Source: Ignavibacteriota bacterium
GTDB lineage: Bacteria > Bacteroidota > Ignavibacteria > UBA10030
NCBI GenBank assembly: GCA_963727825.1
Contig: CAVSHO010000009.1
Span: 128,001 to 192,000, forward strand
DNA length: 64,000 nucleotides
Reading direction: 5' to 3'
Positions within the stretch are counted from its first letter, which is position 1. Each line of letters opens with the position of its first letter. The position numbers and the translations under genes were made by a program. The notes under the pieces were generated by a model. It did not search any database. It was not told the DNA's origin and saw only the letters and a program-made list of their open reading frames with translations. Shown piece by piece: positions 19,766 through 44,747 of this stretch.

Positions 19766-20254
19766 ATGAAACGCGGATTCATTCTTTCATTACTTCTCGC
19801 ATCGTTTATATTTGCCATCGGCAACGCACAATCCGTTCAAATCCAGAAAGCTCCAAATTTTTCACTCAAGACTTATGATGGCAAAATTGTCGAACTTGCT
19901 AAATTGAAAGGTACAGTTGTTGTCGTAAATTTCTGGGCTACGTGGTGTCCACCTTGCCGTGCAGAGATTCCAGATTTTATCAAAGTTTATGATACTTATA
20001 AATCAAAGGGATTAGAAATCGTGGGCATTGCACTCGATGAAGATGGCTGGCTAAAAGTAAAACCATTCTTAGAAAAGAATAAAATGCATTACCCCATTGT
20101 GCTGGGTAATGCTGAAGTTGTGCAAAAATATGGCGGCATTGAAGGTATTCCAACAACTTTCATTGTGGATAAGAAAGGAAATATCGTTGACCACCAGGTA
20201 GGCATGCTGACAAAAGGAATGCTGGAACAGAAAATCAAACAATTATTGAAATAG
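19766..20254 (+). CDS. TlpA family thiol:disulfide oxidoreductase
   Basis: Signal peptide, VNFWATWCPPCRAEIP and IPTT. Confidence 0.93.
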   Translation: MKRGFILSLLLASFIFAIGNAQSVQIQKAPNFSLKTYDGKIVELAKLKGTVVVVNFWATWCPPCRAEIPDFIKVYDTYKSKGLEIVGIALDEDGWLKVKPFLEKNKMHYPIVLGNAEVVQKYGGIEGIPTTFIVDKKGNIVDHQVGMLTKGMLEQKIKQLLK

Positions 20255-20275
20255 TATGTTCTTGACGGATACGCA

Positions 20276-22105
20276 TTGTTTCTTGCAATGCAAAACCACC
20301 AATTCCATAATTCCGGATTACAGGTAAAAACAGCTATGAAACATTTTCTTTGCGCGCTTATTTCAATTCTCTTTATTGCCTTGGCACTCATCGCACAACC
20401 AACGTCTGCAGCACAGCAAGTAAATGCAAGAGCAATACTCTCCACAGACAAAATACAAGCCGGCAGTACTATTCAGATTGCTCTACAATTGAAGATCTCT
20501 GATGACTGGCATATCAATTCGCATACACCAACATTTGACTATCTGATTGGCACAACTTTCGAACTTCAATCTAAGGAAGAAATTATACTTGCTGATATAC
20601 AGTATCCAAAAGGCAACCCTGTCTCACTATCTTTTGCAGATCAACCTATCGACGTGTATGAAGGAACAACCACAATCTTTGCCTCTCTGAGAATTTCTGA
20701 TAAACTGAATCCCGGCATTGATACAATTAAAGGAAAGATAACTTTCCAGGCCTGCAATAATCAAATATGCTTGCCTCCTTCGGCCATTAATGTAAATATC
20801 CCCATTCAAATTGTTGGACCAGGTGAAGCTGTCACACCTCTGAATCAAGATCTCTTTGCTAATTATAAACCGATTGATTTCATTCACACTGAAACAAAAA
20901 ATGATATCGCGGCAATGTTCGAATCAAATGGCTTGTTGTTGACTTTCTTTGCCATCTTTCTCATTGGCCTTGCGCTCAATCTTACGCCATGTGTTTATCC
21001 AATGTTGTCCGTAACTGTTTCGCTCTTTGGTTCACAAGCAGAAACAAAATTTATCCGCGTTTTCTTCAAAGCTCTTCTTTATGTTCTTGGCATCGCAACG
21101 ATGTACAGCGTGCTCGGTGTAATTGCAGCACTTGGCGGCGGATTATTTGGAAGCTGGCTCCAAAGTCCTTGGGTGCTTGGCAGTATTGCGGCTTTGTTGT
21201 TCGCTCTCGCGCTTAGCTCGTTCGGTTTGTATCAGATACAAATGCCTTTTTGGCTGACAAGCAGATTGGGTGGAACATCGGGCAGTGGATTCATAACAAT
21301 TTATTTATCAGGACTCGTTGTTGGTGTGTTCGCCGCACCGTGCGTTGGCCCGCCGGTGATTGCATTGTTAACATTTGTTGCAGCAAAAGGAAGTGCTTCA
21401 TTCGGTTTCTGGATATTTTTTACGCTATCACTCGGACTTGGATTTCCATATTTACTTCTCGGTACCTTCGCCGGGCTTCTTAAAAAAATTCCGCGCTCTG
21501 GTTCGTGGTTAGTATGGGTAGAACATATCTTCGGGGTTATTCTCACAGGAGCGGCATTATTCTATTTTTCTCTTGCTATTGCACCAAGGCTCGCCATTTA
21601 TGTCATTCCGATTACGCTTGCCGCCGGTGGAATTTATCTCGGCTTCATTGATAGATCCGGAAAAGATAAACCAGCATTGAAACGAATTCAATGGGTACTG
21701 GGAATAATTGCAATAGCCATAGGACTCATCTTCGCTAACAACCTGCGAAACAAAGGTGTGACATGGGAAACTTATTCCGATGCAAACCTATTAAAAGCTA
21801 AGGAGAGCAAAATACCTATTATAATTGATTTCTATGCAGATTGGTGCATTCCGTGTTTGGAACTCGATCGAAATACATGGACAGATGAAGAAGTTATTCA
21901 GGCAATGAAAGATATCAAAAGAATAAAGGTGGATCTGACACATTTCGATTCACCGGAATCTGAGAACTTACGAAAGAAGTTCAACATCTCCGGAGTTCCT
22001 ACAGTAATATTTATCAAGGCGGACGGAACAGAAGCGAATGAGTCTCGAATTATTGGGTTTGTAAACCCAAAGGAATTTATGATAAAGCTAAAACAAATAT
22101 TTTAG
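20276..22105 (+). CDS. dsbD: DsbD-type thiol:disulfide interchange protein (likely start near 20336)
   Basis: N-domain QACNNQICLPP, TM domain TPCVYPM and APCVGP, C-terminal FYADWCIPC. Confidence 0.9.
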   Translation: MFLAMQNHQFHNSGLQVKTAMKHFLCALISILFIALALIAQPTSAAQQVNARAILSTDKIQAGSTIQIALQLKISDDWHINSHTPTFDYLIGTTFELQSKEEIILADIQYPKGNPVSLSFADQPIDVYEGTTTIFASLRISDKLNPGIDTIKGKITFQACNNQICLPPSAINVNIPIQIVGPGEAVTPLNQDLFANYKPIDFIHTETKNDIAAMFESNGLLLTFFAIFLIGLALNLTPCVYPMLSVTVSLFGSQAETKFIRVFFKALLYVLGIATMYSVLGVIAALGGGLFGSWLQSPWVLGSIAALLFALALSSFGLYQIQMPFWLTSRLGGTSGSGFITIYLSGLVVGVFAAPCVGPPVIALLTFVAAKGSASFGFWIFFTLSLGLGFPYLLLGTFAGLLKKIPRSGSWLVWVEHIFGVILTGAALFYFSLAIAPRLAIYVIPITLAAGGIYLGFIDRSGKDKPALKRIQWVLGIIAIAIGLIFANNLRNKGVTWETYSDANLLKAKESKIPIIIDFYADWCIPCLELDRNTWTDEEVIQAMKDIKRIKVDLTHFDSPESENLRKKFNISGVPTVIFIKADGTEANESRIIGFVNPKEFMIKLKQIF

Positions 22106-22140
22106 AATATTTTAGGCTATTTATAATAGCGGAGAAACAA

Positions 22141-22572
22141 ATGAAGAAATTATCAATAATTGTTTTTATCACAATATTCATAAGTGTTATTCTCTCTTCA
22201 CAAGAAAAAAAGGATATTGAGCAATTACATAATAAATACCACTCGATGGTTGGTTATTTGGTCGACCAAAATTGTGGCAAGAGAATGGTAATGGATGATG
22301 TAAAGAAATCAGATGCCAAAGCTGCAAAGCACACAAAGGATTGTTCACTTGACGAAACATGTGAAGCGGCCGGCTTTGGAATTGTAACAGGCGGTAAGTT
22401 TTATAAGTTTGACGAACCTGGAAACAAAAAAGCAATCGATTATCTTACAGCATCAAAAAAAGAAGACAACATTAAGGTAGAAGTCACCTATACGATGGAT
22501 GGCGATAAAATGAAAGTAGAATCGATCAAAGACTACAAGTCCAGAGGGAAGAACGATAAAAAGAAGAATTGA
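22141..22572 (+). CDS. Secreted hypothetical protein with conserved Cys (GYLVDQNC..HTKDC..C)
   Basis: Signal peptide, GGAG RBS and an open frame. Confidence 0.7.
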   Translation: MKKLSIIVFITIFISVILSSQEKKDIEQLHNKYHSMVGYLVDQNCGKRMVMDDVKKSDAKAAKHTKDCSLDETCEAAGFGIVTGGKFYKFDEPGNKKAIDYLTASKKEDNIKVEVTYTMDGDKMKVESIKDYKSRGKNDKKKN

Positions 22573-22690
22573 CATTCGAAAGATTATTTTGGAACAGCCC
22601 TTGGATTGGGAGTGACGATTTTTTATTTCACTCATACTGCCTTCTCTCTCCTTTGCATTCATAATCTGCTTTTGGTATATTAATTTTATC

Positions 22691-22909
22691 ATGCCAGATA
22701 ATTTACTCCTTATCATCTTCGGGATTCTTTCCACTATTGCATTGTTTGTCGGCTGTCTTGCAATCTATTTTGCGGTAAAGTATGCCAAGAAAAAAGACGG
22801 CGAACTGATGATGGTATTTTGGGCGGTGATTGCTCTGGCCGGTCTCACATTTGCCGGAATGAGCTGGGCATATTTCCTCATTCCAATTGTGGTAAATAGG
22901 TTGTTTTGA
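22691..22909 (+). CDS. Small two-TM membrane protein
   Basis: Two hydrophobic helices separated by a lysine-rich loop. Confidence 0.6.
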   Translation: MPDNLLLIIFGILSTIALFVGCLAIYFAVKYAKKKDGELMMVFWAVIALAGLTFAGMSWAYFLIPIVVNRLF

Positions 22910-22998
22910 CTTTCCCTACTTGCCTTTGATTCAAGTCTGATTTACTTTATTCTGAACAAGAATCATACCAAACAACTAATGGACAAACATCAACTCAC

Positions 22999-23619
22999 AT
23001 GCAAATGAATCTTACAAAAACAGAGTTACGGTTTTTTACAAAACTCAAAGCGCCATTCAAGATTCAGGAGTTTCTCGATTCCATTCCATACAGTGACGAA
23101 GAGCGATACCGGTGTCCGCGAAGCGTTTTGCGAGACCGCAAAGCGCATTGTTATGATGGTGCAGTCTTTGCCGCCGCGGCTTTGCGTATGATTGGTTATC
23201 CGCCATTACTTGTCGATATGCTGCCAAACGGGCGTGATGACGACCATGTTCTTGCTGTGTTCCACCAGAACAATCGCTGGGGTGCTGTTGCAAAATCAAA
23301 TTTTTCAGGACTGCGATTTCGTGAACCAGTGTACCGCGGGCTGCGTGAATTGATTATGTCTTATTTTGAATTCTATTATAACATCGCCGGAGAGAAAACG
23401 CTTATCGGTTACACGATTCCGTTAAATTTAAATCGATTTGATAGACTTAGCTGGCTTGTGAACGACAGCGCAATGGATGCAATAGCTATAGAATTGGATA
23501 GCAATCGCAAGTATAATATTATTACTAAAGCAATGGCAAGGCAACTTTCTGTCATTGATAAGCGTTCATATAATGCAGGGTTGCTTGGCGCAAATCATAA
23601 AGGACTCTTTCAACCATAA
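22999..23619 (+). CDS. Transglutaminase/papain-like fold hypothetical protein
   Basis: AHCYDGA and DDHVLA suggest a Cys-His dyad; also WGAVAKSN. Confidence 0.65.
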   Translation: MQMNLTKTELRFFTKLKAPFKIQEFLDSIPYSDEERYRCPRSVLRDRKAHCYDGAVFAAAALRMIGYPPLLVDMLPNGRDDDHVLAVFHQNNRWGAVAKSNFSGLRFREPVYRGLRELIMSYFEFYYNIAGEKTLIGYTIPLNLNRFDRLSWLVNDSAMDAIAIELDSNRKYNIITKAMARQLSVIDKRSYNAGLLGANHKGLFQP

Positions 23620-24111
23620 TTGAGGAACATCATGCTAACAACATCTGAACGAAATGAATGGATTCAGAAGATTCAACAGCTTCCACTGAAATTAGAAGCC
23701 GCTGTTAAAGGATTGAATGACATACAATTGGATACACCGACCGGCGAAGGTAAATGGACAAGCCGGCAAATAGCGCATCATATTGCAGATGCAAACATCA
23801 ATGCTTATTCGCGGATGAAACTCATTGTCACCGAAGAAAAACCAATCTTGAAACCTTACAATCAAGACCAATGGGCATCGCTTGCGGATTGTAAGAACGG
23901 ACGGATAGATTCAACGCTCACACTTATCAAAGGATTGCACGAGCGATGGTTCTTGTTTTTGCAATCGCTGCCGGAAACAAGCTGGGTACGCGAAGGTATT
24001 CATCTTGAAAACGGCAAAGTGACGCTTGAAGATGTTCTAAGAATCTATTCCAAGCATGGCGAAACGCATTTGCAGCAAATAATTTCATTTCGTGAAAAGA
24101 TGAAATGGTAA
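23620..24111 (+). CDS. YfiT/DinB-family metal-dependent thiol S-transferase
   Basis: WTSRQIAHHIAD, LKPYNQDQWA, LHERW and HGETHL. Confidence 0.85.
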   Translation: MRNIMLTTSERNEWIQKIQQLPLKLEAAVKGLNDIQLDTPTGEGKWTSRQIAHHIADANINAYSRMKLIVTEEKPILKPYNQDQWASLADCKNGRIDSTLTLIKGLHERWFLFLQSLPETSWVREGIHLENGKVTLEDVLRIYSKHGETHLQQIISFREKMKW

Positions 24112-24122
24112 AAGATATAAAT

Positions 24123-24474
24123 ATGAATCATGCATGGATCAAATCATTCCCTGCCGCTATAACCGTATGCGATGTCAATGGAATCATTCTCGAAATGAAC
24201 GACAAGGCGATTGACTCGTTTAAAGATGATGGCGGCGAGAAGTTAATCGGAACGAACCTATTGAATTGCCATCCGGAGCCGGCGCGTTCACAACTGGAAG
24301 AGATGCTCAGAACACAAAGACAAAATTCCTATACGATTGAAAAGTGCGGCGTTAAAAAGACTTATTTATCAAACACCATGGTACGACAACGGACGGTATT
24401 CTGGATTTGTAGAAATCAGCCTGCCTATTCCATTTGTCATGCCTCATTTTATTCGAACCGAAAAGAAAGAGTAA
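24123..24474 (+). CDS. Standalone PAS-fold protein (frameshift near 24358)
   Basis: AITVCD..GIILEMN..LIGTNLLNCHPEP, then LIYQTPWYDNG..GFVEIS..MPHFIR* in the shifted frame. Confidence 0.75.
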
Positions 24475-24479
24475 CAAAT

Positions 24480-24887
24480 ATGCCGTTTCTTGAATGGAAA
24501 GATTCATATAACATCGGCGTAAAAGAAATAGATAATCAGCACCGCGGACTATTTGATCTCATCGATAAGTTATTCAATTCGCGCTTGTATGAACCATATG
24601 GAAAATATTTCCTTTTATCGCTGGATAAATTTGTAGAATACGCACAGGTACACTTTGCAACAGAAGAAAGATATATGCAAGAAACACAATACCCGAAATT
24701 TGCAGAGCATAAGCGTGAGCATAAACTCTTTATTGAACAAATATCTAAGTTGGCACAGGGTGTCGAGAACAAGGAACCTGATATCGAGAACAAGACACTT
24801 GATTTCTTAAAGGATTGGTACCTCGCTCACATTTTAGGAACAGATCGCGATTTAGAAAAGTGGTTCCAAGCTAAAGGACTCAAATAG
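24480..24887 (+). CDS. Bacteriohemerythrin
   Basis: W...Y.IG..IDNQH, HFATEE, H...H and HILGTD give a full di-iron ligand set; separate ATG at 24480. Confidence 0.9.
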   Translation: MPFLEWKDSYNIGVKEIDNQHRGLFDLIDKLFNSRLYEPYGKYFLLSLDKFVEYAQVHFATEERYMQETQYPKFAEHKREHKLFIEQISKLAQGVENKEPDIENKTLDFLKDWYLAHILGTDRDLEKWFQAKGLK

Positions 24888-24904
24888 GAATACATAAACA
24901 GGCT

Positions 24905-25315
24905 ATGAATACACCTATAGAATGGCAAGACAATTACAGTGTTGGAGTGAAAGAGCTCGATGATCAACACAAAATTTTATTAGATATCATAAACACCTTA
25001 CTCAAAGAACAAGGAGATGAATATAATGCCGCTCAGTTATCGGAATCGATTTTATCTCTGATTCATTACGCCTATGTTCATTTCGCAACTGAAGAGCGAT
25101 ACCTTGCACAGATACCTTTCCCCGATCTTAAGCAGCATATACTTGAGCATGTTGATTTCATCATGAAAACAATGGAGCTTTCACTTAAAGTAAAAGAAGA
25201 TATACAGGATAATCGGCGTGAGCTTCTTGAATATTTAAAAGGATGGTATTCTTCACACGTCCTCGGCATCGACCGGCTCTACATTCCTTTTTTCAAAGCA
25301 AATGGAATTATATAA
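24905..25315 (+). CDS. Bacteriohemerythrin (paralog)
   Basis: LDDQH, HFATEE, HILEH and HVLGID. Confidence 0.9.
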   Translation: MNTPIEWQDNYSVGVKELDDQHKILLDIINTLLKEQGDEYNAAQLSESILSLIHYAYVHFATEERYLAQIPFPDLKQHILEHVDFIMKTMELSLKVKEDIQDNRRELLEYLKGWYSSHVLGIDRLYIPFFKANGII

Positions 25316-25356
25316 TACGCCATTAGTGATATTATCTATTTCACAAAGGATACATT

Positions 25357-25719
25357 ATGGCAACAAAACTAAACGACTTCCGAACATACCGCGCAAAGAT
25401 GAACCAGCGTATTGCTGAAATTGATCACCTTGGAATTAAAAGATTTTTTAATCTGGATGACTCCGCCTACAAAGCCGGTGCGTTAGACTCAAAAACGAAA
25501 GAACTGCTTGGTTTGGTTGCCTCCGCTGTTCTTCGGTGCAATGATTGTATTGATTACCATCTCATTCAATGCATAAATGCCGGGTGGAAAGACGAAGAAT
25601 TGTACGATGCGTTGAATGTTGCGCTTGTTGTCTGTGGAAGTATTTTCATTCCACACTTGCGCCATGCAATTGAAACTATTGATACTTTGCGTGCAGAACG
25701 CGAACCGATAGAAGTGTAA
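25357..25719 (+). CDS. Carboxymuconolactone decarboxylase/AhpD family protein
   Basis: ALDSKTKELLGLVAS..RCNDCIDYH. Confidence 0.9.
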   Translation: MATKLNDFRTYRAKMNQRIAEIDHLGIKRFFNLDDSAYKAGALDSKTKELLGLVASAVLRCNDCIDYHLIQCINAGWKDEELYDALNVALVVCGSIFIPHLRHAIETIDTLRAEREPIEV

Positions 25720-28034: not shown

Positions 28035-30701
28035 CTACAACCCGCCAATCCAATATGTCAATTTTAACATGAAAATATTGTCAGGCTTCGAACTAACGAG
28101 ACGGTTGAACGAGCCATTTAATGCAAATGTTCCATCTACAACATCATCGGAACGGCTCTGTGTCCACACTAAGAAGAGTGTGGAACCGGGCATATATTCC
28201 CATCTCAATACAGCATTGCCGCGAAGAGATACATAATTAAAGTTCGGATTTGAAATATTCATAACCGGAGCTGGCCCGCTGCCATCCGGATCAAGATCAT
28301 AGCTGCCGATCGAACCATCTGAATTATCATTTCTCGTTATTGTAGAACCATCCTTGCCAAATTCTAGAAAATCAAACGATCGCGCACGTGAAAGTTCTTT
28401 GAAGTTGGTAAAATTCCCTGATGAAAGGAATGGTTGAGCAAAGAGTTGGAAGCTCAGTGTCGGTGTGAACGTCCAATCAACACGTATTTGAGCGGAGAGT
28501 TCTTTATAGACCAAATCTGCAAAAATATATCTCTTTCCATAAGTTGTCGAAGCAAGTTGGTCATCAAAACTTTCAATCCAATGTCCACGATCTAAGTTGA
28601 ATGTATAGGCGGGACCGAATGATATTGAAATACTTGAGATAGGACGCATTGTAAAGGATAAGCTTGCATTGTGATAAAATCCATCAGCTCCTTCATACGC
28701 ATACCAATAAGCTCCAAAAACATACTTGTTGCGGCTGTCGGAAGAATAACTAAAATTCCACTCGTAGCAATCGGGATTAAGCATTTTCGGACCACCGCGT
28801 GTTCGACAATCATTGATGGATTCAAATCCATAATCGTAATACAAACTGAAATAATCATAGCTCGGCAATTGATAATCAATGCCCCCCCAAACGCCTTTCC
28901 ATGTCGCATCCCCGCCAAAATCATAAGTTCCGAAAACTGAACCATAGATGTTCACATAACGATAATATTGCGTCGGATCATTCCACTTATATCCGGTACC
29001 TATATGACAATTGATTATATCGGTGCGTGATAGATATCCGAGATCTCCTGATTCAAATCCCGGGCTAATGAATCCAAACGCGGCATTGAGAATCATATTG
29101 CCCTTTTGTTTGTTCAAGGTAAACCGACCGGCATAACCGCTCAACGATGTTGCAGAACTATCTAAAGAAATATAGTGCGCATCGGGCCGCTGAAAATAAT
29201 GCGCAGAACTTTGCTGCAAATTTATCATCCGTTCACGAGTGCCTTGAACGTTTGAGACCGCAGCCCAACCCGAAATCATATATACTTTTCCCGTATCGAA
29301 TGCCGTCCAACCATCAAGAGCAGCGACATAGGAATTTTCATTGACATCTGTCTTGATACTAACGTCATCAAAAAATCTGTTTACAGACGTGACAAGAAGC
29401 CCTGCACCCTGACGGCCATCATTAAAATCCCGTTGAACGCGTGCGACCATGTATGATGTCATTGGTTCTGCTTCTAACGACCACTTTGTTCCATCAGTAT
29501 CCAATTGATCATACTCGCGCTTCGTTACAGCTTCTATCACTCCGACATTCCAGCCATCAATAACTTTACCAGTGATTTTTGCGGCACCGAGTATATGCGT
29601 ACCGAGCGGAACATCGGCATAATCGTAATCATAATTCGATAGATCGCGCTGAGGCGTGCGACCGATGCGACGGCTGTAAAATAAACTTGGCGATGACCAA
29701 TTAAAATTCCAATAGTTATTCACACCTCCCTGACCAAAGGAAAATATATTCATTCCTTCAAGAAAGAAAGGGCGTTTCTCCTGGAAATACGTTTCTACAT
29801 CGCTTAAATTTACAACAGCCGGATCAACTTCCACTTGGCCAAAATCCGGATTGATCGTTCCTTCGAGCACTAAGTTTGTGCTTAAACCCCATTTTAAATC
29901 CGCCCCAATACCCGGAGTATATTTTGATCCTGTATTAAACGGATCACCGGCATCGTGGGGTGCATATTCAGCTCGTCCGGTTATGTATGGAGTAATCTCA
30001 AATCTAGTTGGAGGCGTAATATTTTCGATGCCAAGAAGATCAGGATAACGAGAAACTGATCCGCTTTCGTTGCGCGGAGTATAAACGAGATAGTCCTGTT
30101 CTTTTTTCCTTGCTATAACGCGCTCAAAATCAATTCCCCAAATATATTGATCATGTTGTTCAAAGCGTAATTGGGAAAATGGAATCTTTATCTCAACACA
30201 CCATCCATCAGAAATGATCTTGGATTTTGCTTCCCATACTCCATCCCAGCTTCCATCGCTCCAATCGTCGTTGTAAAGAATCCCATCCCGCAATGCGCCT
30301 GCTGCCGATACGATAAAGTAAAAGCCATTTCGCTTATCATGATATGAATCGATGCCCACAGCAAATTCATCGGAACTGGCATCGTTATCACGCCGTGCAA
30401 GTCTAGTGATAATGGAATCAGGGTGTGCATCATGCATATGTGCAGCTATATATAATGCTTCATCATCATACGCGACCCACACTTCCGTCAATTCAGTTGC
30501 CGGTTTTCCTTGATCTGGGTTTTGCTGGAAAAAAGCCGTCGTGCCTGCACGCTGCCAGACTGACTCGGAGAGCACGCCATCAATCTTAATGGGTTCCTTT
30601 GTACGAACAGCGGAGATTTGTTTTACAAAGTCAGGCGGGTTGCTATAGCCAGACACAAATCCTACAAGAAGCGTCAGAAAAAACCATCCTAAAAGGCGCA
30701 T
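28035..30701 (-). CDS. CBM9-like plus DUF5916 outer-membrane protein
   Basis: IKIDGVLSE..W, EIKIPFSQLRF, TINPDFGQVEVD, EKRPFFLEG, LFYSRRIG and C-terminal KLTYW. Confidence 0.85.
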   Translation of the reverse strand: MRLLGWFFLTLLVGFVSGYSNPPDFVKQISAVRTKEPIKIDGVLSESVWQRAGTTAFFQQNPDQGKPATELTEVWVAYDDEALYIAAHMHDAHPDSIITRLARRDNDASSDEFAVGIDSYHDKRNGFYFIVSAAGALRDGILYNDDWSDGSWDGVWEAKSKIISDGWCVEIKIPFSQLRFEQHDQYIWGIDFERVIARKKEQDYLVYTPRNESGSVSRYPDLLGIENITPPTRFEITPYITGRAEYAPHDAGDPFNTGSKYTPGIGADLKWGLSTNLVLEGTINPDFGQVEVDPAVVNLSDVETYFQEKRPFFLEGMNIFSFGQGGVNNYWNFNWSSPSLFYSRRIGRTPQRDLSNYDYDYADVPLGTHILGAAKITGKVIDGWNVGVIEAVTKREYDQLDTDGTKWSLEAEPMTSYMVARVQRDFNDGRQGAGLLVTSVNRFFDDVSIKTDVNENSYVAALDGWTAFDTGKVYMISGWAAVSNVQGTRERMINLQQSSAHYFQRPDAHYISLDSSATSLSGYAGRFTLNKQKGNMILNAAFGFISPGFESGDLGYLSRTDIINCHIGTGYKWNDPTQYYRYVNIYGSVFGTYDFGGDATWKGVWGGIDYQLPSYDYFSLYYDYGFESINDCRTRGGPKMLNPDCYEWNFSYSSDSRNKYVFGAYWYAYEGADGFYHNASLSFTMRPISSISISFGPAYTFNLDRGHWIESFDDQLASTTYGKRYIFADLVYKELSAQIRVDWTFTPTLSFQLFAQPFLSSGNFTNFKELSRARSFDFLEFGKDGSTITRNDNSDGSIGSYDLDPDGSGPAPVMNISNPNFNYVSLRGNAVLRWEYMPGSTLFLVWTQSRSDDVVDGTFALNGSFNRLVSSKPDNIFMLKLTYWIGGL

Positions 30702-30732
30702 CTGATTCCTATAAATTATCTATGATAATGTA

Positions 30733-30765
30733 TCAGACTCGACTTTAATCGAAAAGGTTGGGGGG
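30733..30765 (-). promoter_or_regulatory. Putative ECF-sigma promoter of the DUF5916 gene
   Basis: Minus strand CCCCAACC-TTTT..(17 nt)-GTCTGA matches the motif upstream of the ECF sigma at 58381-58410. Confidence 0.5.
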
Positions 30766-30924
30766 ATAATAATCGCTCATCCCTTCTCTCATTAATAAAT
30801 GGCATACGAAATATGAAGCAAACTTGTTGCAATAATAGTTTCTCCCTGTAAATCTTCCTCACTGAAAAAGAAACAATCACCTCGTTGGTTAGATTTCCAT
30901 ATATCCGATAGAAATGCGGCTGGA

Positions 30925-32163
30925 TTACATCGCAGGTAGTGGTTGATCGCCTTGTGCCTCAGGAAGATATACATGAAATGTTGTTCCCTTGCCCACAACA
31001 CTTTCGACGGTTATGAATCCCTTGTGTCCTTTTACAATTCCAGCAACGATCGACAATCCCAATCCCGTTCCCTTGCTGATTTCTTTGGTAGTATAAAATG
31101 GTTCGAATATTTTTTCGATTCGTTCTGGAGGAATGCCAATGCCTGTATCGGAAATTGTCAAAACTAAAAATGAACCTTCGTTAGCATTTGGAATCATTTC
31201 AGCCATTGTTTTACTCACTTGTTCACAAGCAAGCGATATCGTAAGACGACCACCCTCTGGCATTGCATCTTTTGCATTAGTGATCAAATTAACTAATACT
31301 TGTCGAAGCTGAGTTTCATCGCCAAGCACAATGGTAGAGTTATCTGGAAGATTGCTTTCAACCTCGATATTAGGCGGCAAAGTTTCCTGAATCGCAGATA
31401 GAGCACTACGCAAGATATCAGAAACTTGCAGCGGCACATGTTGTCCTTCTACACCGCGAACAAAAGCAAGCACCTGCTGAATAAGATTGATGCTATACTC
31501 AGCGCTAAGCCCGATAGATGTCAACATGGATTTGCTGTTTTTATCTTCAACTTTCCGTTGCAGTAATTCTGCCGCCATCTTCACAGGCACCAAAAGGTTC
31601 TTCAAATCATGCGCCATGCCGCTTGCTAAAACGCCAATACTTTCTATCCGTTGCGCTCGCAGTTGTTTCGCTTCCAAACGCTTTCGCTCCGTCACATCAA
31701 TCAGAACACCCTCGATATATCCTTTATCAGAGAATAAAGTGCCGGAAAAAGAAATACACGCTTCCGTTTTATCGAAACGCTGAACCGTAATTTCAAGGTT
31801 TTTTATTGTTCCTTGTTTTTGAAGCGTAGTAATTATTTGGTCTCGATCTGCCGTTGGGATTGTCTCAAATATTTGTTTTACTTCTTCTGGAGTCTTTACA
31901 CCTAACATTTCTAACAATGCACGATTTGCTTCCAACACATCCCACGAATTTGTAGAAAGGCGCACCATGCCGGCAAGCGAGTTCTCAAAGAGATTACGGT
32001 ACTTTAGCTCGCTTTTAGCAAGTTCTTCAAGCTCGCGCTGTTTGGCAATCATTTCCCTGCGCTTGCTCTGGACAATTGCCATGATAAATCCCACGGCAAG
32101 CAGGAGAAGCACAAATGTGCCCACGCCTATTGTCCATAATATATTTATTGCGGTATCTGGCAT
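30925..32163 (-). CDS. Single-TM PAS sensor histidine kinase
   Basis: One N-terminal TM, a PAS segment, H-box MAHDLKN, NLITNAKDAM, DTGIGI, FEPFYTTK and GTGLGL; the 26-aa extension to 32241 is repeat-derived. Confidence 0.92.
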   Translation of the reverse strand: MPDTAINILWTIGVGTFVLLLLAVGFIMAIVQSKRREMIAKQRELEELAKSELKYRNLFENSLAGMVRLSTNSWDVLEANRALLEMLGVKTPEEVKQIFETIPTADRDQIITTLQKQGTIKNLEITVQRFDKTEACISFSGTLFSDKGYIEGVLIDVTERKRLEAKQLRAQRIESIGVLASGMAHDLKNLLVPVKMAAELLQRKVEDKNSKSMLTSIGLSAEYSINLIQQVLAFVRGVEGQHVPLQVSDILRSALSAIQETLPPNIEVESNLPDNSTIVLGDETQLRQVLVNLITNAKDAMPEGGRLTISLACEQVSKTMAEMIPNANEGSFLVLTISDTGIGIPPERIEKIFEPFYTTKEISKGTGLGLSIVAGIVKGHKGFITVESVVGKGTTFHVYLPEAQGDQPLPAM

Positions 32164-32180
32164 AAAAATTTCTAAAATGA

Positions 32181-32353
32181 AACCTTCCGAAGGGCTGGAA
32201 GCCTGATAATGTTGCCCCGCAATGCGGGGCATCTTTTCCATTTACTTCGGAAGGTTAACTTAAACCTACCCGCAGCAGGCGGGGATTCTACGGTAACCTT
32301 GTCAAGGTTTAACCTGCCTGCCGTCTTTCTGGCGGGAACCTTGACAAGGTTAC
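32181..32353. repeat. Cluster of REP-like palindromes with nested GC-hairpin inserts
   Basis: AACCTTCCGAAGG..CTTCGGAAGGTT; TGCCCCGC-AAT-GCGGGGCA; CCTA-CCCGC..GGCGGG; GTAACCTTGTCAAGGTT-TAA-[24-bp insert]-AACCTTGACAAGGTTAC. Confidence 0.85.
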
Positions 32354-32364
32354 ACGTTTTTGTT

Positions 32365-32801
32365 TTACTTTGCCAATGCTAATGTCTCCATTGTAAATGG
32401 AGATGTTTCATCGCAAAATGGTGGACAGATTTCCACTTTTCTCCATAATACTACCTGTTATCATATCTTTTCCCGCGCCATCAACTCCGACAAGCACAAC
32501 TGTGAATTTATCATTCTCTTGTGCCCAATACATTTTAATTTTCTCACATCCAGGTTGTGCAAGTATTTTATCAAATGCGCCACGGTCAAATGAAGCACCT
32601 TGAGTTTGGGGCGCTTGAGGATTCTTGCGGAAGTTACTGACAAGTTGTAATCCTTCGCATCCAAAGCTGATCTCGTGTTTTTCGGCTCCAATAAATGTTT
32701 TATCTTTTGAATCAGTTGCACTTACTTTCGTTCCGATAAAAAATGAAAGCGTACAAATAACGAGGGCAATTACCCCCCCCCCACAATAATAGTTTTTTCA
32801 T
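32365..32801 (-). CDS. Signal-peptide-bearing CPPxC small protein, paralog of 33547-33879 (two +1 frameshifts; absent from the ORF track)
   Basis: AAGGAG RBS; manual translation MKKLLLWGG/VIALVICTLSFFIGTKVSA..GAEKHEIS..SFDRGAFDKILAQPGC..VLVGVDGAGKDM..SIMEK/ICPPFCDETS..LAK*; shifts at G10 (32773-32782) and near 32431. Confidence 0.8.
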
Positions 32802-32845
32802 TTTGCTGCTCCTTTTGTATTGTTTGTTTTTGGTTGATTAAGATT

Positions 32846-32889
32846 ACCTTCCGAAGGTCTCGGCGGATCTGTATTGACCTTCGGAAGGT
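32846..32889. repeat. REP-like inverted pair
   Basis: ACCTTCCGAAGGTC ... GACCTTCGGAAGGT, same family as 32181. Confidence 0.75.
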
Positions 32890-32893
32890 CAAT

Positions 32894-33545
32894 TTATACC
32901 GGCATTAACCGTTTTGCATAAAAAAGCACGAAGGAAAAAATATACTGCATTACAATAAATACATCATTTAACGGCCAGATTGCTCTGAGCAGTTTTCGGT
33001 TTGATATCAACATTGGGGTAAATAATCCGAAAAAGAAGAATGTGACTACTGCATATAAAACTATTCCTGACAGAACCCAGAAACGAATATCTTTTTTCAA
33101 AACAATATTTGTCTCTTTTATAGATTCTCAGCAATATCCACCCTCCAAAACCGATTTGGATGAGTTGAGCAATTGGCTCAGTATAATTATCCCATCCAGT
33201 AAATGACTCAAAGGTAAATTTTCCGATTATCCAAATTAGCAAATAAACTGCAAATCCAGCCCAAATTAAAAATCCATTTCGCTTGCTTGTTCGCCATAAA
33301 TAAAAAATACATGAGAACAATAATAATTCAATCACTGCAAAACTTTGGCCCATTAAATAAGTATGAATTTTTTTATGAACCATAACATCTATTACTATAT
33401 CGACGATTAATGAGCAAATGATATACCATTCAAGAATCCTAAGAGGTAATGTTAGTTGTTTATATCTTCTTAACCCAATAAATCCTACGACACAAACAAA
33501 AACTTGAGCAGTATATATTGCCACATACACATAATCTAGAGACAT
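32894..33545 (-). CDS. Multi-pass (about 7 TM) membrane protein, frameshift near 33117
   Basis: Consecutive hydrophobic helices; joining the two ORFs gives about 216 aa including RFWVLSGIVLY; start abuts the upstream gene's stop. Confidence 0.75.
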
Positions 33546-33546
33546 A

Positions 33547-33879
33547 CTATGCCTTCAAGAGTTCACTTGTTTCATCGCAAATTGGTGGACAAAACGAACC
33601 TCTCTCCATAATACTTGCAGTCATATCTTTACCAGCTTTATCAACACCAACAAGAACTAAATTAGGTTTGCCATCCTCATCGCGTCCATGATAATATCGC
33701 AAACCTTTACAATCCGGATGGGCAAGAATTTTATCAATTGCTCCACGGTCAAATGAGCCGCCGTGAAGTTTGGGATGGATCGGGTTTTTCTTGTGGCGTT
33801 GTATGTGCTGCTTTGCCTCGTCCAAAGAAATCTCGTGTTTTTCCGCACCCGGAAATTTTGCATCTACTTTTGCAGCCAT
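33547..33879 (-). CDS. Small cytoplasmic protein with C-terminal CPPxC motif
   Basis: Strong AAGGAGG RBS; HEISLDEA, SFDRGAIDKIL..C.GLRYY, LVLVGVD and CPPIC. Confidence 0.85.
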   Translation of the reverse strand: MAAKVDAKFPGAEKHEISLDEAKQHIQRHKKNPIHPKLHGGSFDRGAIDKILAHPDCKGLRYYHGRDEDGKPNLVLVGVDKAGKDMTASIMERGSFCPPICDETSELLKA

Positions 33880-33913
33880 GACTAATCCTCCTTATATGAT
33901 TAATAATTCAAGA

Positions 33914-34077
33914 CTTCTGAAATATTCGGGATTGTCATTTCGAAGAATCCAGAACGACAACTTGTCCGCCATTGTTTTGGCGGAAGTCAATCGGGAGACT
34001 GAGAAATCTTAATAAAAAGAAAGATTTCTCTCCCGATTGACATCGGGATCGAAATGACAAACAATATTTTTCAGAGG
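33914..34077. repeat. MITE-like composite palindrome (GTCATTTCGA...TCGAAATGAC) with nested insert
   Basis: TTGTCATTTCGA (33932) pairs with TCGAAATGACAA (34060); inner GTCAATCGGGAGA..GAGAAATCTT pairs with AAGATTTCTCTCCCGATTGAC; insert CTTG-TCCGCC..GGCGGA at 33961-33984. Confidence 0.8.
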
Positions 34078-34264
34078 CCTCAATTTAATACTGTTGTTTA
34101 GTAAAGCACATAAAAGTATATGTAAACAAACTTTTACAAGTCGCTCATAACATTACCAAGAAGGAGATTTACTGTTTTAAAGACTGCCAACAAGTTAAGC
34201 AAAATTTGGAATTATGCAACGAAAAGATACAATACTTTACCAAGACAATGAGACTTCGAAGTGT

Positions 34265-34324
34265 ATCTCTCCGACCGCTTAAACTTGCCCGCCGAAGGAA
34301 CGCAGGCGGGGCGATCGGAGAGAT
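34265..34324. repeat. Hairpin with nested GC-hairpin insert
   Basis: ATCTCTCCGACCGC-TTAAA-[CTTGCCCGCCGAAGGAACGCAGGCGGG]-GCGATCGGAGAGAT. Confidence 0.8.
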
Positions 34325-34417
34325 CGCTGCACCCAGATATGTATCATTGTGAAACACAATCTAAATAAAGAGCTATCGAAAACTTGCATCCGATAAAAAC
34401 GTAATCCTTCGACAAAC

Positions 34418-34492
34418 CCTCAACGTGAGGCCTCAACGTGAGACCTCGGCGTGAGACCTCGGCGTGAGCTCGGTCGGACGCTCGGTCGAACG
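34418..34492 (+). repeat. Tandem 12-13-bp repeats
   Basis: CCTCAACGTGAG(G/A) x2, CCTCGGCGTGAG(A) x2 and CTCGGTCG(G/A)ACG x2. Confidence 0.8.
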
Positions 34493-34581
34493 TTCAATGT
34501 GACTTCAAGTAATTTTTTTAAGATAAGTTCTAAAAGAAAAGTGGTCTTACCATGGCAATTCATTTCAAAGGGAAAAAACCC

Positions 34582-34623
34582 TTGACACAAGTGTCAATAA
34601 GTCATAATATGCAAACGTTTGCA
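34582..34623 (+). promoter_or_regulatory. Sigma70-type promoter with LacI-family operator
   Basis: TTGACA-17 nt-TAATAT followed by the perfect palindrome TGCAAACGTTTGCA (34610-34623); a second inverted repeat TTGACAC-AA-GTGTCAA overlaps the -35. Confidence 0.7.
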
Positions 34624-34624
34624 A

Positions 34625-34714
34625 ATGAAGCATCCGACTATTATTGATATCGCCCATAAACTGAAGATTTCTCTTTCAAGTGCCCTCAATGATCATCCGA
34701 ATATGGACATATAA
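34625..34714 (+). pseudogene. LacI-family regulator N-terminal remnant
   Basis: MKHPTIIDIAHKLKISLSSALNDHPNM resembles the LacI HTH start (TIxDIA..L.IS.STVSRALN) with the TVSR segment deleted. Confidence 0.7.
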
Positions 34715-34820
34715 TATCTATAAATCTGTCCTGAACAAAAAAGCTTCTGATGCAAATCTTCTCTGGGTAGGATGCATGTCAACTATTGTCGGTATTATGA
34801 TTTCCTTAGTAACTGCGTAA
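34701..34820 (+). pseudogene. Internal fragment of a sodium:solute (galactose-type) symporter
   Basis: IWTYNIYKSVLNKKASDANLLWVGCMSTIVGIMISLVTA resembles the SSS segment WTYDIY..ASD..L..GR..TVVG. Confidence 0.55.
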
Positions 34821-34912
34821 TGAGAAAGAAGTTCCTTTATATTTTACGTGGAGGTTTTATGATTGTCTTCGGGGGTGGAATGTATTTGAAAATGAGAAAG
34901 CAGATAAGGTGA

Positions 34913-36094
34913 ATGTATATGAGTTTTATTCAGTCGGTTACAACTATATTTAGGGAAAAATTCAAAGAACAACCCTTATTATTTCGTTCACCCGGAAGAG
35001 TGAATCTTATTGGCGAGCACACGGATTACAATATGGGGTATGTCCTTCCGGCAGCAATCGATAAAGCAATTATTTTTGCAATTACTCCGCGAAGCGATCG
35101 ACAGTGCATTGTGTATGCAATGGACATGAACGATGAGCATGAATTTTCGTTAGATAATCTTCAATTCTCAAAAAAGGGATGGCCGAATTATTTAATGGGG
35201 GTGGTGGATCAGTTAGTCAAAGCGAAGTATAATATAAGAGGATTTAATTGTGTTTTTGGAGGAGACATTCCAATCGGTGCAGGGATGTCGTCCTCTGCAG
35301 CACTCGAAGCAGGTTTGGCTTTTGCGCTTAACTCTATGTTCGATTTACAGATCGATGCACTTTCACTTGTTAAGCTTGCTCAAAAGGCAGAGAATGAATT
35401 TGTCGGTGTTCGGTGCGGCATTATGGATCAATATATAAACATTTTTGGAACACGAGATAACGTCCTTCGTATTGATTGCCGCTCATTGGAATACAAATAC
35501 TATCCGTTTGCTTTCGGCAATATATCTCTCGTTCTCTTTGACACATGCGTCTCGCATTCATTGGCATCGTCAGAATATAACCGAAGAAGAGAAGAATGCG
35601 GCGAGGGAGTAGAAATAATAAAAAATATTTATCCAGATGTGTGCCATTTACGAGATGTATCTATTGAGATGCTGCAAAAATGCAAGAACAAGATGGATCC
35701 GGTAATATATCGAAGGTGTAAATATGTCGTAGAGGAAAACGGTCGAGTGCTTAGTGCGTGCATCGAACTAGAACAAGGAAACTTGAAAGCTTTTGGTGCC
35801 CTTATGAACAAAACACACGATGGATTGAGCCGCGACTATGAGGTAAGCTGCGCAGAACTTGATTATCTAGTAGAGTTGGTCAAGGACAATCCATACGTCT
35901 ACGGTGCGCGGATGATGGGTGGCGGGTTTGGAGGGTGCACGATCAATCTCATTGAACGTCAAGCGGTCGAAGAAGTCAACCAGCGGGTAGCAGAGAAATA
36001 TAAAAAAGAATTTCACATCGACTTAAAGACCTACATTACGTCCATCGATTCAGGAACACATATTATCACAGCGAACGAATATGCAGCAGACTAA
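34913..36094 (+). CDS. galK: Galactokinase
   Basis: PGRVNLIGEHTDYN, PIGAGMSSSAA, CGIMDQ and GARMMGGGFGG. Confidence 0.97.
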   Translation: MYMSFIQSVTTIFREKFKEQPLLFRSPGRVNLIGEHTDYNMGYVLPAAIDKAIIFAITPRSDRQCIVYAMDMNDEHEFSLDNLQFSKKGWPNYLMGVVDQLVKAKYNIRGFNCVFGGDIPIGAGMSSSAALEAGLAFALNSMFDLQIDALSLVKLAQKAENEFVGVRCGIMDQYINIFGTRDNVLRIDCRSLEYKYYPFAFGNISLVLFDTCVSHSLASSEYNRRREECGEGVEIIKNIYPDVCHLRDVSIEMLQKCKNKMDPVIYRRCKYVVEENGRVLSACIELEQGNLKAFGALMNKTHDGLSRDYEVSCAELDYLVELVKDNPYVYGARMMGGGFGGCTINLIERQAVEEVNQRVAEKYKKEFHIDLKTYITSIDSGTHIITANEYAAD

Positions 36095-40731: not shown

Positions 40732-40841
40732 CTTTTATCTCATTTATTTAGTTTTTAAATACCATCACTACCAAATTTGGCTTTAGATTCAAACAATATG
40801 GTTTTCAGCTCACGCACTTTTTATCTATATTGATAGAAAAT

Positions 40842-42786
40842 ATGCTATCACTTGAACATATTACTATTCAATTTGGAGAACGTTCGCTGTTCCAGGATGT
40901 TACAGCGACTGTTGGTCCGCGAGACTGTATTGGGCTGGTTGGTTCGAACGGCAGCGGTAAGTCTACACTTCTGAAAGCTATTGTTGGTCTTCAGCAAACC
41001 GATGCTGGAACTATCAGCAAAGCGCAATATGTAACGGTCGGCTACTTGCCACAAGACGGTGTTACCGCTTTCGGTCGTACCTTATATCAGGAATCAGAGA
41101 CTGCTTTTGAGGATGTCCTCCAAGTCCAGCATGAACTGGATGATGCACACCAACAACTTGCGAATCTTGATCCTTCCAGCGACGACTTTGCTGATACGCT
41201 TGAAGTTTTGGGTGAACTCCAGCATAAATTAGAAGACCTCGATGCCTACCGGATGAAATCCAAGATCGAACGCATTCTTATGGGACTCGGATTTTCTACA
41301 AAGGATTTTGAACGCCTGACGGACGAGTTTAGCGGCGGCTGGCAGATGCGCATTGCCCTTGCGAAATTGCTTTTAAAGGAACCCAATGTCCTCCTCCTCG
41401 ATGAGCCGACAAATCATCTCGATATTGAAACACTTCAATGGTTGGAAGAATATCTTTGTCAGTATAACGGCGCTATCATTCTTGTCTCGCACGACCGTAC
41501 ATTTCTTGATAATCTTACGAACGAAAACATTTGCTCTCAGCCGCGGTAAATTCGAAAGTTATGCCGGCAATTATTCTTTCTATGAAACCGAGCGCGAAGT
41601 ACGCAAAGAACTCCTTTTAAGCCAACTCAAGAATCAACAGCAGCATATCAAACAAACACAAGTATTCATCGAACGATTTCGGTATAAAGCTACTAAAGCA
41701 CGTCAAGTACAAAGCCGGATTAAACAGTTGGAAAAAATTGGGGTAGTAGAAGTGGAAAGCGAAGAAGAGGAAATCCATTTTCATTTTCCACCACCGCAAC
41801 AAAGCGGTCGTGTAGTGATGGAATTAAATAATCTCGGTAAACACTATGGTGCTTTAGAGGTTTTCAATAATCTTGATTACAAAGTTGAACGCGGCGATCG
41901 TATTGCAATCGTTGGAGTCAATGGTGCTGGTAAATCTACATTATCAAGGATCCTTGCCGGTGCAGAATCCTACGACTCAGGCGAGCGCATCATCGGCTAC
42001 AATGTTGTAACATCTTACTTCGCACAGGATCAAGCGGACGAACTCGATCCCACAAAGGACGTTCTGCAAACAGCAGAGGAATCTGCTGGAACAGAAACTC
42101 GCACTCAGCTTCGCACACTTCTTGGTTCATTTCTTTTTCATGGTGACGATGTTTTTAAGAGCGTATCCGTTCTCTCTGGCGGTGAAAAAAGTCGGCTTGC
42201 GTTAGCAAAAATGTTACTACAGCCGGCAAACTTTCTTATAATGGATGAACCGACGAATCATCTTGACATGAAATCAAAACGTGTACTGCAGGAAGCGCTA
42301 TTAAAGTATGAAGGCACTTTCGCCATAGTCTCGCACGACCGTGCTTTTCTCGATCCCATCGTCAACAAAGTTTTAGAAGTGAAACCCGGTTCACTCCGAA
42401 CGTTCCTCGGTAATCTCTCCGATTATATTATAAAGAAAAAAGAGGAACGCGAACAGACAGAACAGCGCATAGAAAAGTCAGCCACACCTCTTTCTAACGA
42501 GGCGCAAGCGACATGGCAAGAACAACAAAAACGACGCAAGAGCATCGCTCGCGATATCCGTATTGTGAAGAAGAAAGTTGAAGAAGCCGAGATTAGAATC
42601 CATCAACTGGAAACACGGAAAAAAGAGATCGAAGCATTACTCGCGAATCCCGAGCACTATAAAAACGGTGAAGAGGCAAAATTGATCGCAGCAGAATATA
42701 AGGAGTTACAAATCCAAATCGAAAAGGCATATACTAATTGGTCTGATTTAACTCATCAACTTGAGCAAGTGGAGAACGCTATTTAA
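40842..42786 (+). CDS. ABC-F family ATPase (frameshift near 41520)
   Basis: Two ABC cassettes (GSNGSGKST/FSGGW/LDEPTNHLD and GVNGAGKST/LSGGE/DEPTNHLD) and a C-terminal coiled coil. Confidence 0.9.
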
Positions 42787-44353: not shown

Positions 44354-44747
44354 TGAGTGATCAATGGCAAAAGAAAGTATAGTTCGAGAAAAGGCATTTG
44401 CATTTGCAATCAGGATTGTAAAGCTGTATAAATTTCTATCAACAGAAAAAAATGAATTTGTTCTTTCGAAACAGATATTACGCAGTGGCACTTCTATCGG
44501 TGCAAATATTGAAGAGGCAGATGGTGCAATTTCTAAAAAAGAATTTTCAAATAAAATATCCATTGCCTATAAAGAGGCAAGAGAAACTTCATATTGGTTA
44601 CGTTTATTGGAAGCCACTGATTTCATTGAAAAACGCCTATTCGAATCATTGGTAACCGACTGCGAAGAATTGTGTAAACTTCTTTTCGCAATTATAAGAA
44701 CCACGAGAATCAAAAATTGATCACTAATCATTCATCACTGATCACTA
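44334..44747. repeat. Inverted heptamer arrays flanking the four-helix-bundle gene
   Basis: Left TAGTGAA CAATGAG CAGTGAT GAGTGAT CAATGGC; right ATCACTA ATCATTC ATCACTG ATCACTA. Confidence 0.8.
44364..44720 (+). CDS. Four-helix bundle protein (23S rRNA IVS / TIGR02436-like)
   Basis: KAFAFAIRIVKLY, LSKQILRSGTSIGANIEEA and KEARETSYWL. Confidence 0.92.
   Translation: MAKESIVREKAFAFAIRIVKLYKFLSTEKNEFVLSKQILRSGTSIGANIEEADGAISKKEFSNKISIAYKEARETSYWLRLLEATDFIEKRLFESLVTDCEELCKLLFAIIRTTRIKN

Follow-up and report, generated by a model that had tools for sequence, protein, structure and literature searches.

A conserved, unannotated cassette of CPPxC-domain, seven-helix membrane and histidine kinase genes in an Ignavibacteria-type lineage, and its possible role as an accessory sensing module

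A histidine kinase that has no outside sensor depends on partners; to our knowledge few such partner sets are understood, and those that we can name all come from Firmicutes. The closest described arrangements are three. SaeP and SaeQ, which show no homology to any functionally characterised protein, associate with the kinase SaeS in a ternary complex and induce its phosphatase activity (PMC5083920). The membrane accessory protein LiaF governs LiaS, a kinase without an outside domain (PMC3543457), and in 7TMR-DISM, 7TMR-HD and LytS-type (BtsS) proteins a membrane module of seven helices provides the input to a histidine kinase (PMC6107284, PMC10653868). Here we analysed a stretch of 64,000 nucleotides from an Ignavibacteriota bacterium (GenBank assembly GCA_963727825.1, contig CAVSHO010000009.1, positions 128,001 to 192,000 of the forward strand), hereafter the window. 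It holds a four-gene cassette that encodes a small protein with a C-terminal C-P-P-x-C motif (P1), a seven-transmembrane (7-TM) protein, an exported paralog of the small protein (P2) and a sensor histidine kinase (Table 1). This cassette is real, is conserved in an Ignavibacteria-type lineage and is unannotated. With a probability of roughly 0.45, we read it as a lineage-conserved signalling cassette in which accessory proteins form the sensing module for a kinase without an outside sensor.

The order of these genes is kept in relatives and so is seen in independent assemblies. A genome scan with two narrow peptide patterns gave 77 pattern matches, 12 of which were confirmed, at 10 loci (L001 to L010), all in metagenome-assembled genomes (MAGs). 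The small gene is followed by the 7-TM gene at nine of the ten loci, with gaps of 1–41 nucleotides, L010 being the exception, and an orthologous PAS kinase stands directly downstream at six (L001, L003, L004, L005, L006 and L008). At L007 the kinase lies 4.4 kb on, past genes for a LiaF-like protein (directly after the pair; LiaF match, E 3e-11), a LytS-type kinase, a LytTR regulator and a decarboxylase; the contig of L002 ends after P2. The statement in a first-pass annotation of this DNA that such triplets recur unannotated is thereby borne out in Ignavibacteria-type MAGs, some of them labelled Bacteroidota. Contig sizes served as a proxy for co-residence: 14 of the 22 distinct contigs of at least 5 kb with a small-protein match are equal in size to a contig with a kinase match, equal size being taken, rather than proven, to mean the same contig. 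Past the kinase, L005, L006 and L008 share a REC+GerE (NarL/LuxR-type) regulator gene, a hybrid kinase gene and a gene for a protein with a Por secretion tail. No response regulator adjoins the window cassette, the nearest REC gene being at 48262, so that the earlier statement that none is adjacent holds here and at L001 but not at these three loci. In the window, the downstream neighbour of the kinase is a DUF5916 gene, and galK lies on the other side of the cassette, past a 1-kb gap.

The four genes all lie on the minus strand within 30925–33879, as the first-pass annotation had described, but only P1 and the kinase are intact as assembled; the membrane gene and P2 read as broken by indels. 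P1 is the 110-residue protein that had been noted, with CPPIC near its C-terminus (CPPICDETSELLKA) and an N-terminus that is not hydrophobic. The membrane gene abuts it, starting 1 nucleotide past the P1 stop, but does not form one open reading frame (ORF) here. As assembled, it consists of a 193-residue ORF, whose last ~45 residues are out of frame, and a 68-residue ORF in another frame that carries the true continuation. DNA alignment with the intact L004 and L001 genes places an extra base (+1) near 33121 and a missing T (−1) in the T run 32935–32940, and tblastn with intact orthologs of 218–227 residues finds about 60 garbled codons, including a stop, between the two good stretches. P2 is a genuine paralog of P1 (54% identity over 90 residues, E 2e-30) and is 83% identical over 116 residues to the intact 144-residue ortholog of L002; the ORF caller missed it since it lies in three frames.

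The kinase consists of an outside stub of about eight residues, one transmembrane helix, a basic QSKRRE stretch, a coil and PAS, HisKA and HATPase_c domains. The domains above cut-off are HATPase_c (E 3e-28), HisKA (E 1.4e-07) and PAS_8, which places the protein among the two-component sensor histidine kinases of the HisKA class. Its start is most likely Met27, giving 412 residues, because the kinases of the loci align from that Met and most of 68 homologs (matches to the first 75 residues) have the same length. The single N-terminal helix with almost nothing outside had been described correctly, but the protein is not sensor-less, as it carries a cytoplasmic PAS domain. Intramembrane-sensing histidine kinases have two transmembrane helices, a very short outside linker and no other input domain. 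The kinase of the window shares their negligible extracytoplasmic part but has one helix and a cytoplasmic sensor domain; judged by its layout, it seems to work like this class, yet it is not a canonical member.

As the loci were chosen through the small protein, their kinases form an unbiased set for comparison. The transmembrane segment with its stub is identical to that of the window at 32/36 positions in L005 and 33/36 in L006 (89–92%), against 36/105 in the PAS domain of each (34%); the catalytic cores match at 103/245 and 106/245 positions. The corresponding values for transmembrane segment with stub, PAS domain and catalytic core are 12/36, 36/105 and 109/245 in L008 and 11/36, 41/104 and 120/249 in L007, and the 7-TM proteins of these two loci are also the most diverged (22–24% identity to L004). 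That a membrane anchor is better kept than the catalytic part of the protein speaks for a specific partner within the membrane, although an exchange of modules could look the same. A predicted complex of the L001 7-TM protein with kinase residues 1–62 scored 0.43 (runs 0.54, 0.43 and 0.34), the best of three controls scoring 0.00; at least 95% of the contacts agree between runs, and the predicted local distance difference test (pLDDT) value of the partner is at least 77. Of 157 solved complexes 116 reach the mark set for this score, as do 2 of 215 mismatched pairs; only 18 of the 157 and both passing mismatches reach it with a score of 0.60 or below, and these calibration counts hold only roughly for a job that was fed its own alignments. 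The prediction lends weak support to a complex between the 7-TM protein and the kinase transmembrane helix. The earlier proposal that the membrane protein is the sensing partner of the kinase is supported in so far as a membrane-level link between the two fits the conserved helix and the weak complex prediction.

The 7-TM protein has 59 homologs, nearly all of them unnamed and of 215–231 residues. The model of an ortholog shows seven helices (pLDDT 86.1, predicted template-modelling score 0.84). Nearly invariant polar residues lie inside the helices (E73, Q130, Y164 and N193), and conservation extends to the loops that follow helix 3 (WRxSK) and helix 4 (GKFxFE) and to a Cys that follows helix 7. 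By the positive-inside rule, the N-terminus and the GKFxFE loop probably face outward. None of 37 members matches any Pfam model, with E-values up to 10 tested for 7TMR-DISM, 7TMR-HD and 5TMR-LYT. Candidate identities were rejected on the same set: the automatic Atlas cluster name YhhN (no Pfam YhhN match in 37 members), LiaF (no match to the LiaF-TM or LiaI-LiaF-like transmembrane domains) and AgrB (no match to AgrB or a peptidase family). A fold search among solved structures gave no match at E ≤ 0.001 and all its E-values lie above 0.06; its list is headed by class B (peptide-hormone) receptors and also holds proteorhodopsins (template-modelling scores 0.44–0.58, E 0.07 or worse), a resemblance that we read as that of generic seven-helix bundles, not as homology. 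Searched with the 7-TM profile, the PDB sequences returned only SecE noise. Two side observations concern this family: L003 carries two tandem 7-TM paralogs (229 and 222 residues) between the small gene and the kinase (1421–2778), and a metagenome contig size of 24553 recurs for two small-protein and two 7-TM matches.

Under our reading, the parts of the cassette are a CPPxC protein that is either signal-less or anchored outside, the 7-TM protein, in some genomes an exported paralog, and the PAS kinase with one transmembrane helix. The 7-TM protein would be the sensing or modulating partner at membrane level; it would contact the kinase through the kinase's transmembrane helix, and this contact would set kinase or phosphatase output. 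The CPPxC protein would bind the 7-TM protein and condition its state, and the exported paralog might be switched on or off by changes in the length of a G run. Output would pass to a regulator encoded elsewhere in this genome and, in relatives, to the NarL/LuxR-type regulator next door. What the analysis shows is the gene content and its order in relatives, the paralogy, the 7-TM model, the extent and anonymity of the small-protein family, the conserved kinase helix and the differing tract lengths; the function of the cassette, with the physical contacts, the direction of signalling, a stimulus and any redox or metal role of the CPPxC motif, we infer from gene order, a single conserved helix and one weak model. 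For the CPPxC proteins, the parts put forward by the first-pass annotation, as a ligand, a ligand-maker or a thiol or metal switch and in signalling between cells, are candidate roles.

The small protein belongs to a large and anonymous family. Of 78 candidate homologs of P1, 76 pass at E ≤ 0.001; every one is an unnamed protein, and the few with organism labels come from Ignavibacteria or Bacteroidota MAGs. They take two forms, one of about 110 residues without a signal and one of 135–160 residues with an N-terminal hydrophobic helix. Invariant in an alignment of 27 sequences are G11, A12, E13, K14, H15, E16, C57, C97, P98, P99 and C101. A set of 98 diverse members keeps full invariance only at C97, P98, P99 and C101, and is nearly invariant at H15, A22, L52, Q54, R61, Y63, G78 and D85. 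The residues flanking C-P-P-x-C are highly variable and the x position varies widely. Among 1.84 billion representatives of clusters at 50% identity, a profile of the 27 small proteins matched 2382 at E ≤ 0.001, 912 at 1e-10 and 46 at 1e-30. The best 148 new representatives contain the motif once (124), twice (13) or not at all (11), those with two being tandem two-domain proteins of about 210–270 residues with an internal CPPxC, and by a simple hydropathy rule 66 of the 148 have a hydrophobic N-terminus. In the P1 model (pLDDT 77) two helices pack on a four- to five-stranded sheet. The ~90–95 residues ahead of the CPPxC tail form a well conserved folded domain, and the last 20 residues, which carry the motif, have low confidence (pLDDT 52–60).

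Comparisons with described families brought no name for this domain. In Pfam and NCBIfam neither P1 nor P2 nor the membrane pieces had a family above cut-off, and weak matches to colicin immunity (E 0.03), BacA and DUF4383 were taken as noise; a Pfam scan of 20 diverse small-family members and 6 intact 7-TM orthologs likewise gave nothing above cut-off, and a PADLOC scan of five proteins gave no match. The small-family profile had no match among PDB sequences at E up to 10, and a fold search of the PDB with the P1 model gave none at E ≤ 0.001, the best being RadD (E 0.015, template-modelling score 0.26), which we do not interpret. The nearest Atlas clusters are all hypothetical, and tblastn found no match for P1 or P0133 in plasmids or for P0133 in phages. 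We found no paper for 'CPPxC', the only literature search made for an earlier description of either family. A thioredoxin-fold CxxC oxidoreductase was rejected, as the motif has three residues between its Cys residues and no thioredoxin-type Pfam or NCBIfam match was found; a metal-binding family match was also absent from both databases. A distant homolog at L010 (6947–12820; Flavisolibacter, 28% identity, with a long acidic insert) lies by a gene for a TraG/VirD4-type coupling protein and two caspase-domain genes, and the CPPxC domain family is likely also carried on a conjugative element there.

The variable surroundings of the motif raise the question of whether the tail itself is a signal. 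In an Agr-like or tethered-ligand system, the flexible CPPxC tail would be released by the membrane protein or inserted in the 7-TM pocket, and its variable flanks would give specificity. This fits an invariant C-P-P-x-C amid highly variable residues with a varied x, the low-confidence tail, the commonness of exported forms and a 7-TM fold search that lists peptide-hormone receptors first, if not significantly. However, what precedes the tail is a conserved folded domain, not a leader or a short precursor peptide, and the tandem two-domain members (13/148) bear the motif internally. AgrB has an invariant His that pairs with a Cys; in the 7-TM protein the conserved Cys lacks an invariant His as its counterpart. 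With no AgrB or peptidase match in the 37 members, no conserved exporter or protease gene at the loci and no fold-search E-value as low as 0.06, we regard such a system as very improbable. Equally improbable to us is a receptor–ligand system acting in trans in the manner of peptide-hormone receptors, in which the 7-TM protein would read the CPPxC tail and signal sideways to the one-helix kinase, the exported ligand paralog being switched by its G run. If true, such a switched exported ligand would allow population-level or cell-to-cell signalling in Ignavibacteria.

Several points weigh against the accessory-sensing reading itself. The signal-less P1 and the exported forms would lie on opposite sides of the membrane, and one docking model cannot serve both. 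The high identity of the transmembrane segment in L005 and L006 could stem from module exchange instead of constraint. The complex score falls in a range in which, barring a guess that was already likely, most passes are wrong, and its controls are unrelated natural proteins that a hydrophobic helix may beat trivially. The small-protein family reaches far beyond the cassette, and its width, together with L010, which has neither a 7-TM gene nor a kinase, points to a more general role of the CPPxC domain. L009 has the small and 7-TM pair without a kinase, and the 10 loci are close kin, non-independent and drawn from narrow patterns. Lastly, the 7-TM gene reads as broken here, and the system may be non-working in this organism.

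Some of these points bear on a second explanation, in which the small and 7-TM proteins are an autonomous two-gene module, for example for envelope redox or metal handling or as a membrane protein with its partner, that is near signalling genes by coincidence, and the kinase senses by its own cytoplasmic PAS domain. The pair is indeed the tightest unit of the locus, the distance to the kinase varies, the kinase is missing at L009, and another two-component system intervenes at L007. A redox role would fit the Fe/Mn superoxide dismutase gene that immediately precedes the cassette in L005, L006 and L008, the redox genes 5–11 kb off in the window, the three Cys that are invariant in this clade and the C-P-P-x-C with a nearly invariant His family-wide. 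Against it, the same kinase ortholog follows at six loci and is near at a seventh, and in L005 and L006 its transmembrane segment is far better conserved than the remaining protein; the three superoxide dismutase loci are close kin and amount to about one event, and the small protein matches no thioredoxin-type or metal-binding family. We consider an autonomous module unlikely.

We next turn to the export of P2. Its ATG opens a signal-peptide start (MKKLLLWGG), after which the G10 run, at codons 7–10, breaks the frame; the body past the run reads VIALVICTLSFFIGTKVSATDSKDK...GAEKHE...GKDMITGSIMEKSG, and a second shift, an extra base near 32428, precedes CPPFCDETSPFTMETLALAK (with CPPFC) and the stop. 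This run is the single G/C run of at least 8 in the window, against 0.36 expected (0.02 for runs of at least 10). At the same site L004 has G8, L006 has G10 and L002 has the interrupted, in-frame GGGGAGGG; the L002 protein is intact, beginning with MKK and continuing through a hydrophobic core to VSA-TD. Read by frame, 9 or 12 G would join the P2 ATG to the body, and the signal peptide assigned to P2 by the first-pass annotation belongs to it only at those lengths. With 8 or 11 G the only start is a GTG at the tract (P0070 begins MGGGVIALV), and with 10 G there is no start codon for P2. None of the three uninterrupted tracts (window, L004 and L006) has a fully 'on' length, the window's own G count being unreliable given its other frameshifts. 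Programmed frameshifting at the run was rejected, as G8 and G10 need opposite shifts.

These features suggest that the tract is a slippage switch. As in contingency genes, a homopolymer of at least 8 lies in the 5' coding region and its length differs among related genomes (four assemblies). In poly-G contingency loci, for example of Neisseria, a long G run likewise lies early in a gene for an exported protein (PMC2193922, PMC5953494). The P2 tract resembles them in varying between assemblies, one version being interrupted and fixed in frame, but its hosts are uncultured environmental bacteria, not host-adapted pathogens, and the lengths compared are those of assemblies. If true, this would be an unusual slippage switch in an environmental, non-host-associated bacterium. 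Separately, L009 has a C9 run at 8795 and, at 8246–8743, tandem repeats of ~184 nucleotides; these repeats lie on the downstream side of its 7-TM gene, in the place that the kinase takes at other loci.

A quick maximum-likelihood tree of the paralogs (52 rows, high support on 2 of 47 inner branches) places the P2 group in its own clade (Shimodaira–Hasegawa-like approximate likelihood ratio test, SH-aLRT, 93). The signal-less P1 type forms one clade (88) nested among exported clades, and exported forms are basal. P2 had been thought to have gained its signal peptide; given this nesting, the tree weakly favours the reverse, with loss of the anchor in the P1 line as the simpler reading. Orthologs with a signal, which the first-pass annotation had called for, are plentiful: the intact L002 P2, the first genes of L005–L009, each with an N-terminal anchor, and the 66 representatives mentioned above.

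The broken frames of the window allow for a different history of the locus, that of a decaying remnant in which the 7-TM gene and P2 are pseudogenes, a palindromic insertion cuts P1 from its promoter and the kinase is orphaned. Four 1-nucleotide indels cluster within ~0.7 kb (33121 to 32428), while each of the flanking kinase, DUF5916 and 697-residue genes aligns to L001 in one piece. One of the indels at least, the extra base near 32428, lies outside any homopolymer, and the protein collection often has P2 orthologs only as fragments (P0065, P0068, P0069 and P0076). The 174-nucleotide palindrome upstream of P1 is absent at this place from L001–L004 and is a real structural difference of this genome; its folding energy is −72.3 kcal/mol (z −7.8), neither the window nor the loci contain another copy, and a miniature inverted-repeat element is a possible identity for it. 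On the other hand, at least four further genes of the window are split by frameshifts (Table 1), which indicates that 1-nucleotide indels are made or kept throughout this assembly. Nor are the broken genes unusually diverged: the 7-TM pieces are 70–76% identical to L001 and L004, which share 75% with each other, and P2 is identical at 94–96 of 114 positions to L002 and L004, which share 117 of 136. The 193-residue ORF of the window is also present in the protein collection, on a 996-kb contig. Without excess divergence, and with other genes split as well, recent inactivation and assembly error are inseparable, and we take them to be about equally likely causes of the interruptions in the 7-TM gene and P2. 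Decay of the whole locus strikes us as doubtful, if a serious contender, and 'pseudogene' calls from this assembly should be made with caution, given its many frameshift-split genes.

Table 1. Positions in the window of the cassette genes, associated elements and other genes split by frameshifts.
Feature	Position	Strand	Evidence or remark
P1, 110-residue CPPxC-domain protein, no signal sequence, intact	33547..33879	−	ORF call; 76 homologs
Seven-transmembrane membrane protein gene, read as disrupted by two 1-nucleotide indels	32889..33545	−	193- and 68-residue ORFs, DNA alignment, tblastn
P2, exported CPPxC paralog, read as disrupted, three frames	32365..32801	−	Frames, DNA, paralogy to P1
G10 homopolymer in P2 signal-peptide codons (C10 on + strand)	32773..32782	−	Only G/C run of at least 8 in the window
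Sensor histidine kinase, 412 residues from the probable start Met27 (ORF up to 32241)	30925..32163	−	Pfam, locus-kinase alignment
Near-perfect palindromic insertion, 174 nucleotides, between conserved upstream block and P1 ribosome-binding site	33908..34081	−	Alignment to L001–L004
Conserved upstream block	34082..34240	−	DNA alignment: L004 and L002; L001 and L003 partly
LigB-like (dioxygenase) gene, frameshift-split	5020–5628 + 5496–5798		
ABC-F (ATPase) gene, frameshift-split	40830–41549 + 41386–42786		Intact, 659 residues, in L004
DUF4097 gene, frameshift-split	56160–56771 + 55800–56069		
Phosphoglucomutase gene, frameshift-split	61119–62375 + 62408–62545		

The conserved upstream block is a likely promoter or leader region. 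A short palindrome at 32875–32891 (GACCTTCCGAAGGTC) overlaps the stop of the 7-TM gene. It has a near copy in L001 (~7975–7990), in which the kinase gene comes next, and is perhaps a terminator or an RNA element. Rfam and tRNA scans gave nothing but a tRNA-Leu at 39302, and a promoter and terminator scan of 30500–35000 gave counts near the shuffle means and was not used. The segment 34913–39386 holds galK, galT, an aldo-keto reductase gene, two tandem small GIY-YIG genes and tRNA-Leu(CAG). It separates the cassette from 2-hydroxyacid dehydrogenase and ABC-F genes, which in L004 stand directly upstream of P1, and thus looks inserted or rearranged.

Elsewhere in the window, 19766–25719 (5–11 kb from the cassette) carries genes for an AhpC/TSA redoxin, DsbD, a DinB-like protein, two hemerythrin-domain proteins and a CMD (AhpD-like) protein. 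A 23S rRNA intervening-sequence protein gene (44364–44720) sits amid a xanthine-dehydrogenase-type cluster, between the flavoprotein/FeS and molybdopterin subunit genes. At 53658–58448 there are two extracytoplasmic function (ECF) sigma factor genes, with putative anti-sigma and DUF4097 'toastrack' genes after each; of the DUF4097 genes, one is frameshift-split.

If our reading holds, the cassette adds a kinase partner set from a poorly studied lineage, together with two protein families that have no annotation. The strong conservation of the single transmembrane helix of the kinase yields a concrete, testable contact hypothesis. The CPPxC domain, with its 2382 representative clusters, has no Pfam, NCBIfam or PDB relative, and any function assigned to it would carry over to thousands of proteins.

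The closest architecture is that of SaePQRS of Staphylococcus aureus, in which small exported and multi-pass membrane proteins are likewise encoded upstream of a kinase nearly without an outside part; the likeness is one of architecture only, and we claim no sequence relation. SaeQ has four predicted helices against seven in the 7-TM protein, SaeS has two transmembrane helices and a HAMP domain where the kinase here has one helix and a PAS domain, and the sae operon includes a regulator, which the window cassette lacks. SaeP is a lipoprotein, whereas the small protein here often has no export signal, and the phylum differs. LiaFSR is alike in having a membrane accessory protein for a kinase without an outside domain, and L007 carries a LiaF-like gene after the pair; however, Lia has no small-protein partner and the 7-TM protein matches no LiaF-TM model. 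In the seven-transmembrane receptors the helices are fused to output domains, whereas here a separate protein of 215–230 residues accompanies a kinase with its own single transmembrane helix. The cassette does not carry the defining sequence features of the Lia and fused-receptor families and is not a member of any of the systems compared; it is a new partner set within a known kind of arrangement.

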